Shown: positions 24,001 to 27,000 of the stretch, piece by piece
Numbering within the stretch: position 1 is the first letter of the stretch
Layout of the letters: every line of letters begins with the position of its first letter
Origin: an uncultured Gammaproteobacteria bacterium
Lineage (GTDB): Bacteria; Pseudomonadota; Gammaproteobacteria; JABDGN01
Direction of reading: 5' to 3'
Assembly (NCBI GenBank): GCA_963975985.1
Contig: CAXBIY010000001.1
Span: 307,870-371,869 of the forward strand
DNA length: 64,000 nucleotides
Made by a program: the position numbers

Positions 24001-27000
24001 GGGAGCTAAATAATGAGCGAGATGGCAATGGGTAAGCAATCATTTTTAGCGCACTTAAGAGCATTTGTCGTGCGTTGGGTTTTTTCAACTAATCACAAAG
24101 ATATTGGTACTTTATATTTATGGTTTAGTGTCATCATGTTTTTTGTGGGTGGTGTGTTAGCGCTTTTATTTCGTGCAGAATTGTTTGCCCCCGGTTTGCA
24201 ATTCATGCAGCCAGATTTCTTTAACCAATTAATTACTATGCACGGTTTAGTGATGGTGTTCGGTGCCGTGATGCCAGCCTTTGTCGGGCTAGCTAACTGG
24301 ATGATTCCGCTGATGATTGGTGCGCCGGATATGGCGATGCCGAGAATGAATAACTTAAGCTTTTGGATTTTACCTTTCGCGTTCGGTATTTTAATTAGTA
24401 CTTTCTTTTTAGATGGCCCTGCGCCTAACTTTGGTTGGACATTCTACGCGCCGCTCTCAACAACTTACGGTCCAGAAAGTACCGACTATTTGATTTTCGC
24501 GGTGCATTTAATGGGTATTTCATCCATCATGGGAGCGATTAACGTTATCGCAACCATCTTGAACATGCGCGCCCCTGGTATGAAGATGATGAAAATGCCA
24601 ATCTTTTGCTGGACGTGGTTAATCACAGCCTTCTTATTAATTGCAGTCATGCCTGTGTTAGCCGGTGCCGTTACTATGATGTTGATGGACCGTCACTTTG
24701 GTACTAGCTTCTTTAACGCAGCCGGTGGTGGTGACCCCTTATTATTCCAGCATGTGTTTTGGTTCTTTGGTCATCCGGAAGTGTATATTATGATTTTACC
24801 GGCCTTCGGTATTATCTCGCATGTCATTCCAACCTTTAGCCGTAAAAAATTATTTGGTTACAAGGCCATGGTATATGCAACGGCCGTGATTGCCTTTTTG
24901 TCATTTATCGTTTGGGCGCATCACATGTTTGTATCCGGCATTCCATTGGGTGCAGAATTATTCTTTATGTATACCACCATGTTAATCGCTGTGCCGACCG
25001 GGGTGAAAGTGTTTAACTGGGTGCTGACCATGTTTAAAGGTTCACTGAGTTTCGAAGCACCGATGCTATTTGCCGTCGCGTTCGTGTTCTTGTTTACCAT
25101 TGGTGGTTTTTCTGGGGTGATGTTATCCATCGTGCCGGCTGATTATCAATATCATGATACTTATTTTGTAGTCGCGCATTTCCATTACGTGTTAGTGCCG
25201 GGTGCCATCTTCTCTATCTTTGCTGGTGCCTATTATTGGTATCCTAAATGGATTGGTCGCATGTATAACGAGAAATTAGCGAAATGGCATTTCTGGTTGT
25301 CAGCCGTGTTTGTGAATGTGACATTCTTCCCGATGCATTTTGTGGGCCTTGCCGGTATGCCACGTCGTATCCCCGATTATGCATTGCAGTTTGCGGACTT
25401 TAATATGATAGCTAGTATCGGTGCTGCTGTATTTGGTTTGGCACAGTTGCTCTTCTTATGGAATATGATTGCGAGCTACTGGAAAGGCAAAAAAGTGACA
25501 GAAAACCGCCCATGGGAAGGAGCTGTTGGTTTAGAGTGGACTGTGCCATGCCCAGCACCACATCATACTTTTGCAACCCCACCGGTTGTAAAGGACGAAG
25601 AGCTTCAATGTTGATTAAAGTGTAGGGTGGATAAAAGTTCGACCGAAGGTTGAACCTATCCACCACCTATAAAATTGCCGCGAAGCGGCCACCAATGAAA
25701 AATCATGAAAAATCAAAACAAATCAAAAAAAACTATCATCATTACTATCATTGCCGTCTTTTTAATGTTCGGCTTTGGTTTTGCTTTAGTGCCAATTTAT
25801 GATGTGTTTTGTGATTTAACCGGCTTAAATGGTAAAACCAGTAACGAAATTTCGACAGAAGTGTCCTCGGTTGATAAGTCTCGCACAATTACAGTAGAGT
25901 TTGTCTCAACTTTGAATGACGGCATGCCATGGATATTTAAACCCAATGTGTTTAAAGTGAAATTACATCCCGGCGAAATGAAGCGGGTTTCGTTTTATGC
26001 GAAAAATTTATCGAATAAAACCATTACTGGTCAAGCGATACCGAGTGTGTCACCCGGTAATGCAGCAAAGTATTTACGCAAGACAGAATGTTTTTGCTTT
26101 AACCAGCAAGTGTTAAAGCCCGGTGAAGAAATCGATATGCCCATCATATTCCATGTCGATCGCGATTTACCGAAAGATATTAATACGATAACCTTATCGT
26201 ATACTATGTTTGATGCCGGCGCTTTTCCTCGAGCAGATATAGAGCGCCAAGGAAAAATTACTTAGGATTGAGGATTGAGGATTGTGGATTGAGTGGATGT
26301 GTCGCAATGCGACTCTGGTATTAAAGAAATAAATATTGCGTAGCGATTCTTTAGCCCCTCAATCCTTAATCCACAATCCTCAATCCTTATTCTAATAGGA
26401 GACCCACATGTCAGATCACGAAGGTAGTTATCACGTACCCAAAAGCAGCGCAATTCCCATCATCAGCGCGATTGGATTATTTTTCTTTGGTTTAGGTTCC
26501 ATCGATATTTTCGACGATCCTAAGCACGGTATCATTTACATGAGCATTGGTGCCGTGATTTTAGTGTTGAACATGATCGTCTGGTTCCGCACTGCCATGA
26601 AAGAAAGTCGCGATGGTCTGCACGATGCGCAAATGCAACGGACTTATCAATGGGGCATGATTTGGTATTTCGTCGCACAGTCAGCTTTTGCCTTAGCTTT
26701 TCTAGGTGGCATGGCTTACATTCGCATTTTTACAGTGCCTTGGTTAGGTGGTCACGGTCCTAGCGAATTCCAATTAACACATTTATTAATATGGCCAGAC
26801 TTTCAAGGTGTGTGGCCAGTGTTAGTGAATCCGGCAAACCATGAATTTGTGGGTGCTAAAGCCGCGTTAGATCCATGGACCTTCCCACTCATTTGTACCA
26901 TTACGATGTTAATCAGCATTATCAGTATGGTGTGGGCGCGTGTGTCATACAGCAAACAACAAAAATGGGGCTTAGTCGGCGGATTGGCTGTGACCTTCGT

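Follow-up and report, generated by a model that had tools for sequence, protein, structure and literature searches.

Convergent heptamer repeat pairs at gene junctions of an uncultured marine gammaproteobacterium

Heptamer arrays at three gene junctions

The 64-kb stretch of DNA analysed here (the window; contig CAXBIY010000001.1, positions 307,870 to 371,869) belongs to an uncultured marine gammaproteobacterium with 43% GC. Analysis of the window revealed inverted arrays of 7-nt AGGNNTN units at three gene junctions: element A (26262-26395) between ctaG and coxC of the cytochrome oxidase operon, element B (39792-39919) between the divergent genes lptD (minus strand) and aph (plus strand, a kinase gene), and element C (7298-7393) between tssE and tssF of the type VI secretion system (T6SS). 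These elements are very probably of the same kind as the convergent heptameric simple sequence repeat (SSR) pairs of Xanthomonas, Nostoc, and Geobacter metallireducens, and not a new mobile element. An earlier reading of this DNA (the original prediction) had described them as one family of palindromic elements inserted within operons. The heptamer sequences that it gave were present at the positions it named, and the copies proved to be heptamer-built inverted repeats of a single family. The statement that two copies separate co-transcribed genes was upheld, and Pfam confirmed the gene identities, with gp25/TssE and TssF at one junction and CtaG and COX3 at the other. Insertion within an operon held for A and C, whereas the copy that had been placed at 39800, element B, was located between divergent genes.

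All three elements followed the same plan, in which a 5' arm of 4-5 tandem AGGNNTN units was followed by a spacer of 30-75 nt with a small GC hairpin in it (about 31-58 nt when A, B, and C were compared) and then by the same units inverted. The G-rich, C-poor arm was the 5' arm on both strands, giving a convergent geometry. The units were of the types AGGATTN, AGGGCTT, and AGGTTTT, with 0-1 C per unit, and contained GG only; G runs of four or five were limited to the inner ends of the arms. Neither an internal dyad nor the motif GTAG was found in the arms. Alignment of A, B, and C showed that only the arms were common to all of them, together with a 5-bp GTCGC/GCGAC stem in A and B, so that a small core hairpin was common to two of the three copies, and the spacers were otherwise unrelated.

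The sequence covered amounted to 74 kb, comprising the window and about 10 kb more of the same genome (L122, a locus reaching beyond the right end of the window). Tandem Repeats Finder (TRF) detected period-7 arrays at 7300-7334 (5.0 copies), 26264-26293, 26357-26387, 39807-39833/37, and 39876-39906, and the copy number in these five arrays was 3.9-5.0. With at most one mismatch, AGGATTNAGGATT was matched 10 times (0.24 expected) and TAGGGCTTAGG 6 times (0.47 expected). The generic dimer AGGNNTNAGGNNT was confined within the 74 kb to element loci, and five loci of the AGGNNTN family were found there. The pattern GTCGC-N3-6-GCGAC gave two matches, compared with 0.11 expected, each of them central in an element (A and B). 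The core had been given previously as GTCGC-N4-GCGAC, which was correct for B, whereas the loop in A was N3. An Rfam search at the gathering score gave zero matches, and at E values up to 1 it returned a single spurious match to a plant miRNA precursor (29 bits, with a cutoff of 85 bits).

Structures of the elements

The 5' arm of element A (26262-26296; all arms, hairpins, and outer repeats are given on the plus strand) was identified by direct reading, TRF, and an inverted-repeat search, and consisted of the units TTAGGAT, TGAGGAT, TGAGGAT, TGTGGAT, and TGAGTGG. The stop codon TAG of ctaG (26263-26265) was the TAG of the first TTAGGAT unit. The core hairpin GTCGC-AAT-GCGAC (26301-26313) was off-centre in the spacer of about 58 nt, and the 3' arm with its inverted units, including CCACAAT, was located at 26355-26395 by the inverted-repeat search and by folding. 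In the inverted-repeat search, 26264-26296 paired with 26355-26387 over 33 nt with 88% complementarity. The stem ended about 3 nt upstream of the Shine-Dalgarno (SD) sequence AGGAG of coxC (26398-26402), the ATG of which was at 26408.

Element C had a 5' arm of one TTAGGAT, one TGAGGAT, and three TAAGGAT units (7298-7334; direct reading and TRF), and the stop codon TAG of tssE (7299-7301) was again the TAG of the first TTAGGAT unit. The predicted fold placed an inner stem-loop at 7335-7381, with GGGGG (7335-7339), an inner hairpin, and CCCCC (7377-7381). A decayed 3' arm, TAAATCTTGATT (7382-7393), paired with the last units of the 5' arm, and tssF started at 7446. This site had been taken for a single heptamer arm at 7302, but CCCCCTAAATCTTGATT (7377-7393) was a decayed inverted copy of a stretch ending in AAGGATTAGGGGG and was used by the predicted fold. 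The two arms of C were therefore both present, with unequal lengths. A degenerate relative of the elements, with AGGGCTT and AGGATTA units followed further on by TGAGCCCTAATCT, was located between convergent genes (42379-42415). It had been listed as a weaker relative at 42380; the two family units were confirmed, but its hairpin was not significant (fold z -1.45). Because one AGGGCTT unit (B-type) and one AGGATTA unit (A-type) stand together at this site, both subtypes are tied into one family.

In element B the inverted repeat reached outward beyond the arms, to TCGGTATAAT (39792-39801), 1 nt from the start codon TTG of lptD (39790, minus strand), and to its reverse complement ATTATACCGA (39910-39919), with the start of the kinase gene at 39942. 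The 5' arm (39807-39842) consisted of alternating TTAGGTT and TTAGGGC units with a 14-nt super-period, and the 3' arm (39874-39908) of inverted AGGGCTT and AGGTTTT units, both being found by TRF and the inverted-repeat search. The arms 39808-39842 and 39874-39906 matched over 33 nt at 76%, and within this match a core of 26 nt reached 92% and one of 21 nt 100%. The core hairpin GTCGC-GAGA-GCGAC (39851-39864) was followed on the minus strand by T7, an arrangement similar to that of a terminator, and the left end of B provided the ribosome-binding site AAGGA of lptD. In addition, each strand of the outer inverted repeat contained a perfect TATAAT directed inward, to lptD and to the kinase gene, and no good -35 box was found to go with these motifs. 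If they were promoters, the mRNAs of lptD and of the kinase gene would both start with the heptamer hairpin. Single heptamer-like units were also seen as apparent SD sequences, namely AGGATTC (39931-39937) for the kinase gene and TGAGGAT (L217:1413-1419) for the coxC of a relative. In essence, the AGGNNTN family unit combines a stop codon with a ribosome-binding site.

Relation to known repeat classes

The closest described counterparts are the GGGAATC-type arrays of Xanthomonas, of which 186 and 183 were counted in two genomes, with 70 and 75 convergent array pairs, a preference for about four units, overlap with stop codons, and transcription (Rehm et al. 2015, PMC4692102). In Nostoc PCC 7120 the unit is GGGGAYT, and repeats of both GGGAATC and GGGGAYT formed a G-quadruplex in vitro (PMC4692102). 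In neither Xanthomonas nor Nostoc were the repeats linked to insertion sequences (IS) or transposable elements, and their role "still remains to be elucidated" (Rehm et al., PMC4692102). The elements of the window were similar to these in having tandem 7-nt G-rich, C-poor units, convergent arrays on opposite strands, and about four units per array. A and C also overlapped the upstream stop codon, B in its divergent region being the exception. The differences were that the units here contained GG and theirs contain GGG or GGGG, with four or more tracts of at least three Gs lacking here; that a core hairpin was common to A and B; and that the host was richer in AT (43% GC). Since the units have no G3 tracts, the proposed quadruplex, in its canonical three-tetrad form, cannot form here. 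Termini built from short tandem repeats had been regarded as unusual, but such arms define a class that was already known (PMC4692102, PMC2700814).

A second counterpart is found in Geobacter metallireducens, where eight opposite-strand pairs were named "class 3 global regulator binding sites" (Aklujkar et al. 2009, PMC2700814). Five tandem heptamers with the consensus MTYCTGA were present at 15 of the 16 sites, one pair was located between the co-transcribed proB and proA, and the pairs were read, without a test, as sites for integration host factor (IHF)/HU or for a regulator (PMC2700814). The reverse complement of that consensus, TCAGRAK, is a rotation of the AGGATTC-type units. The seventh base is C there and G, A, or T here, and no core hairpin was described there. 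More generally, heptamers were reported to outnumber the other long simple repeats in many prokaryotes and were explained by slippage (Mrazek 2007, as summarised in PMC4679880). The short tandemly repeated repetitive (STRR) sequences of cyanobacteria and the TAACTGA repeats of marine Beggiatoaceae are likewise tandem heptamers, abundant between genes and near gene ends in scattered phyla (MacGregor, PMC4679880). In the Beggiatoaceae genome TAACTGA was found just upstream of start codons, and only one indirect repeat was present among 170 sets (PMC4679880). These arrays are nearly all direct, whereas those of the window are inverted pairs. Within this class, the AGGNNTN pairs represent a new host and G-tract-free members; the class itself is known and mechanistically unexplained, and the individual copies are ordinary for it.

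Repetitive extragenic palindromic (REP) sequences, with their composite forms BIME (bacterial interspersed mosaic element) and REPIN (REP doublet forming a hairpin), are short extragenic inverted doublets of enterobacteria and pseudomonads that form hairpins after stop codons and between cistrons. They stabilise the upstream mRNA and set differential expression within operons. Each REP unit forms an imperfect palindrome, has a conserved 5' GTAG, and is mobilised by a REP-associated tyrosine transposase (RAYT). The elements A and C resembled REP and BIME in being inverted doublets that form a hairpin after a stop codon and between cistrons, but their arms were tandem heptamers without internal dyad or GTAG, and the elements could not be assigned to REP.

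A different kind of heptad is known from the plasmid pSM19035, in which the ribbon-helix-helix (RHH) protein omega/ParB binds contiguous 7-bp heptads, direct or inverted, with at least four needed (PMC9499535). This precedent, together with the 4-5 units per arm counted here and the preference for four in Xanthomonas (PMC4692102), is consistent with a DNA-level protein platform, in which each 7-bp unit would bind one dimer of a small DNA-binding protein, such as an RHH protein or IHF/HU, and the arrays would organise DNA or regulate promoters. The name of global-regulator sites given to the Geobacter pairs (PMC2700814) and the position of B in a divergent promoter region, with TATAAT on each strand of its outer repeat, agree with this idea. 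The similarity to pSM19035 consisted in 7-bp repeats of both orientations and in the repeat number. Its heptads have no spacer between orientations, function in plasmid partition and as a repressor system whose cognate protein is known, and follow the consensus WATCACW, which the units here did not match. No candidate protein is known for the elements, a statement made without a search for a cognate protein. Most copies adjoined stop codons and not promoters, both in our own counts and in Xanthomonas (PMC4692102), and a single cognate regulator is hard to reconcile with a unit that is the same in phage contigs and in phyla very distant from one another. A protein platform is accordingly regarded as very unlikely.

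Orthologous junctions and copies at other sites

The closest relative of the CoxC protein was found in a gammaproteobacterial metagenome-assembled genome (MAG) and was only 54% identical, and no CoxC relatives were found in the JGI metagenomes; the same proteins as those of the host were also present on Tara Oceans and ENA assemblies, while exact look-ups of the CtaG and TssF proteins gave no record. A neighbouring gene carried a Pfam family of the Coxiella/Legionella type. The original prediction had proposed a comparison with orthologous operons, and this comparison showed that A and C were absent from the junctions of the nearest relatives found, which were distant (43-64% protein identity). 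The nearest relative sharing the order of the oxidase operon had a ctaG-coxC spacer of 15 nt (TAATTTGAGGATACAATG) and a CtaG of 186 aa, as in the host, and in a more distant relative the spacer was 81 nt, without arrays. For the T6SS, the nearest relative in which the gene order was the same had a tssE stop codon that overlapped the start of tssF. Both junctions being tight in the nearest relatives, A and C are taken as lineage-specific additions. The oxidase junction of the relative contained one TGAGGAT, which was the SD sequence of coxC, exactly where the array of A begins. This lone unit would agree with either a stop-plus-SD heptamer amplified locally or an insertion by microhomology, and we treat it as a lead and not as a result. 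The idea of such a seed fitted ctaG-coxC only and found no support at the tssE-tssF junction.

Beyond the three elements, a single array was observed about 3 kb past the right end of the window (L122:7110-7139), with 29 of its 30 nt identical to the 3' arm of A, including the same single odd TGGATT unit. It was located inside a gene of the COG1565/Methyltransf_28 family, in frame, and encoded RIEDCGLRIE; a T variant in the array removed a TGA that would otherwise have fallen in that frame. Because this stretch still aligned with the solved homologue 4f3n, it was not a simple 30-nt insertion. Rickettsia palindromic elements are palindromic insertions of 100-150 nt that add a peptide segment to a protein. 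The array in L122 is likewise in frame within a gene, but it comprises 30 nt that still align with homologues. Similarity scores between arrays at different loci were 28-29, compared with 25 between the two arms of A. Since similarity between loci was at least as high as that within an element, the scores point to copying between sites and not to independent growth at each site.

MITEs (miniature inverted-repeat transposable elements) of bacteria, such as Correia, RUP, ERIC, and Nezha, are 100-150 nt long, have inverted ends, are located between genes or within operons, and form hairpins in mRNA. Their copies have a common internal sequence and length, target-site duplications, and ends that match an autonomous IS. 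The elements were similar to MITEs in size, location, hairpin folding, and inverted ends, the last in a loose sense because the ends are tandem repeats of ambiguous register. If they were non-autonomous transposons, a transposase from another place in the genome would bind the arrays as terminal inverted repeats, and the copies would have arisen by transposition. The inverted termini, the lineage-specific insertions at two junctions, and the arrays at three places with the same 30-mer including one TGGATT unit fit this explanation, as does the finding that excision of 26266-26392 would leave a workable stop-SD-start junction. The spacers, however, differed in length and had nothing in common but the 5-bp hairpin, and the arms of C were unequal. 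No consistent target duplication was found; the sole candidate, TTA/TTA at A, could equally be one more heptamer unit, and B and C had none. A TTAC target of the IS200/IS605 type was also considered and was rejected as it was found at A only. No transposase partner was noticed in the window or L122, where RAYT genes were not searched for. In other genomes, the 45 pairs among the matches listed (see below) had unrelated spacers of 3-225 nt, same-unit arrays did not consistently flank a gene-sized insert, and Rehm et al. had seen no link to IS or transposable elements (PMC4692102). The earlier label of MITE was therefore dropped on account of the unrelated spacers, the lack of a consistent target-site duplication, and the lack of a noticed transposase partner in the window and L122, and a MITE origin is considered quite unlikely.

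Heptamer pairs in other genomes and phages

A scan for (AGGATTN)3 in 185,579 species genomes (596 Gb) gave at least 120 loci, compared with a chance expectation of about 17 matches by our own arithmetic (18 fixed bases, 596 Gb, both strands). The taxa among the matches listed included Acidobacteriota, Gemmatimonadota, Planctomycetota, Bacteroidota, Gallionella, Pseudomonas, Nostoc, Microcystis, Patescibacteria, archaea, and others, and many of the listed loci had the same paired architecture. Orientation was counted in 201 strictly defined period-7 arrays drawn from the matches listed and the window, a partner being a reverse complement within 300 nt; the counts that follow are all of this set. 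For G-rich arrays the partner was on the 3' side in 30 cases and on the 5' side in 3, and the C-rich arrays showed the mirror pattern (29 convergent and 2 divergent), whereas reversed or complemented control sequences gave 1-7 partners. About 45 convergent pairs were obtained, with unrelated spacers of 3-225 nt and with many different units, for example GGTGCTT, GTTGAGA, and GGTTGCT. The stop codon of an open reading frame (ORF) of at least 100 codons was located inside the first two units of 40 of the 201 arrays and 3-60 nt upstream of 68 more. Among unpaired arrays, the G-strand was in the sense orientation after a gene in 76 of 142 and in the reverse orientation in 46 of 142. A search for same-unit array pairs around gene-sized inserts over a long range yielded no consistent case.

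In viral contigs, 92 stretches with heptamer arrays were found, and strict patterns gave 3 convergent and 1 divergent pair, too few to count. Two phage-like contigs (L125 and L143; IMG/VR, metagenome 3300009494) had AAGGATT-type convergent pairs at several gene junctions, where the C-rich arm was directly followed by AAGGAGGTGATC and a start codon, in one phage contig by an SD sequence and ATG. Heptamer arrays of several units were also observed in L005, L027, L036, L044, L045, and L100, some 8-kb stretches having three to eight. The hosts of such multi-array stretches included a rumen MAG, an Acidobacteriota MAG, and Nostoc, and units were reused on other contigs of the same genome.

The orientation counts are of importance for the question of whether the pairs are a neutral by-product, with tracts growing by slippage, an inverted copy arising by fold-back or template switching at the central hairpin, and the result being tolerated without function. 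The abundance of heptamers in prokaryotes and its explanation by slippage (Mrazek 2007, as summarised in PMC4679880), the many units and array lengths inside single contigs, and the unrelated spacers are consistent with such an origin, and so is the lone TGAGGAT in the nearest relative where the array of A begins, which is compatible with local amplification. Against this stand the strong convergent bias (30 and 29 against 3 and 2 among the matches listed), the recurrence of the same unit at several loci of one genome and across phyla, the variant unit common to different loci, and the pairs at several junctions of a compact phage contig. Moreover, the central hairpins were off-centre and the flanks beside the hairpin of A were not mirror images, the latter being the reason why a fold-back origin centred on the core hairpin was rejected. 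A neutral origin is on balance rather unlikely.

Two further candidates did not survive. Stop codons in all three frames as the cause of the orientation rule failed for the commonest unit, AGGATTC. A CsrA sponge had only the resemblance of A(R)GGAU in its favour, with the motif paired in the stem and the class present in phyla with other units. The near-invariant geometry may instead be the footprint of a conserved, so far uncharacterised process at the DNA level and not of RNA-level selection or simple slippage, an idea that we consider a long shot. Its recurrence in many phyla and phage contigs, the arms of about four units, and the reuse of a unit inside one genome would go with this idea. 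By analogy, two G-rich strands running 5' to 3' toward a central hairpin resemble telomeres fused head to head, or Chi-like arrays that face a break site, and candidate processes would be heptad-templated repair synthesis, fold-back at break-prone hairpins, or a heptad-counting protein platform. Heptamer pairs have so far been reported piecemeal, in Xanthomonas, Nostoc, and Geobacter, with no function assigned, and the scans suggest that the same unit and geometry, following a strong rule of orientation, extend across many phyla and phage contigs. If a mechanism behind this rule were found, it would account for a common intergenic feature that annotation pipelines ignore at present.

Predicted folds and possible effect on the operons

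RNA folding predicted very stable structures for all three elements. The fold of A had -58 kcal/mol (z -7.7) and that of C -33 kcal/mol (z -4.7). The arms of B alone gave -52 kcal/mol (z -6.9), and with the outer repeat (39785-39928) B reached -66.7 kcal/mol on the plus strand and -65.5 kcal/mol on the minus strand (z -9.0 and -8.4). Intra-operon attenuators had been suggested in the original prediction, and the stability of the stems would fit them. A terminator scan of the sense strand at A and C, however, found no GC-rich stem followed by a U run, and the attenuator idea was not supported at these two sites. An attenuator or terminator would also conflict with the essential downstream genes (coxC; tssF, tssG, and the rest), which need read-through. 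Only at B did an element site resemble a terminator, in the form of the core hairpin and T7 on the minus strand. A G-quadruplex switch of the sort suggested for the repeats of Xanthomonas and Nostoc could draw on the formation in vitro by GGGAATC and GGGGAYT repeats (PMC4692102), but the units here have GG and not GGG, which leaves no canonical three-tetrad quadruplex. Either kind of switch is judged most improbable.

The explanation that we favour combines a dispersed family of heptamer pairs, its spread between sites, and an intercistronic stem-loop effect, and taken as a whole it is about evenly balanced between being right and being wrong. Template switching or gene conversion would copy an array of about 30 nt from site to site, and arrays would then lengthen or shorten by polymerase slippage. 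Insertions would survive only if they left a stop codon and a free ribosome-binding site in place. An element within an operon would necessarily be transcribed, and its arms would fold into a stem-loop of roughly 15-33 bp with no U-tract after it, which would substitute for the ancestral translational coupling. The stem-loop would act in the manner of REP and BIME, as a barrier to 3'-to-5' exonucleases and likely as a site for a double-strand RNase, and the relative output of the flanking cistrons would be shifted while transcription is not terminated. Of the conceivable effects, the uncoupling of cistrons and the shaping of mRNA decay by an intercistronic stem-loop would be the likeliest, in preference to attenuation, and this mode of action is proposed tentatively, at somewhat less than an even chance. 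In two essential multi-subunit machines, the tight junctions seen in the relatives were lost between tssE and tssF (T6SS baseplate) and between ctaG and coxC (cytochrome oxidase), and a very stable predicted stem-loop was gained at each. On this model the stem-loops should alter translational coupling and mRNA decay and hence subunit ratios.

Several results weigh against the favoured explanation. The relatives that provided the empty junctions had only 43-64% protein identity. Single arrays and an in-frame intragenic array exist, and the divergent genes around B leave no use for a barrier at a 3' end. A unit-order shuffle test for the arms as mirror copies was not significant (p 0.15 and 0.32). 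A second assembly of the same population was identical at two array sites, and because copy number did not change between the two assemblies, slippage was not demonstrated here. G:U and A:C mismatches between the arms were even (16 and 17 overall) and uninformative about selection at the RNA level. In 19 pairs from the scan loci the more stable fold was that of the sense strand in 5 and that of the antisense strand in 14 (Wilcoxon p 0.015), with gene orientation assigned crudely from long ORFs only, mostly in GC-rich MAGs. This excess of antisense folds is the opposite of what selection for a sense-strand hairpin would give, and it was taken as no support and not as a refutation. The mRNA-stabilising hairpin that the original prediction had also named is still considered plausible.

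Other repeats and genes in the region

Two other palindromic families were observed. One of them, at 19115-19224 and 43472-43582, begins with GTAGGGTGGATAAAA and has arms of 29-44 nt with 82-83% complementarity. It has the 5' GTAG by which REP elements that RAYT transposases mobilise are recognised, and one copy overlaps the start of a PhzF-like ORF. The other, CGTCATCCCGCGGCTTGACCGCGGGATCCAG, was present in at least four copies in about 25 kb (60556-60622, 63733-63810, L122:4329-4422, and L122:9519-9545), with arms of up to 35 nt and complementarity of up to 94%.

Two adjacent ORFs (55538-57898, 786 aa, and 58028-60439, 803 aa) had no Pfam family on record in the contig look-up. A VgrG protein (10208-13339; Phage_GPD and OB domain) was fused to a C-terminal DUF2515, and the stretch at 10-12 kb had 56% GC, compared with about 43% elsewhere. 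The two ORFs after VgrG (13368-14060 and 14081-14764), which had no Pfam match, could be a candidate effector/immunity pair. A 51-nt tandem repeat of 1.9 copies with 80% match was located at 61041-61137, inside a 207-aa ORF on the minus strand (60644-61267).

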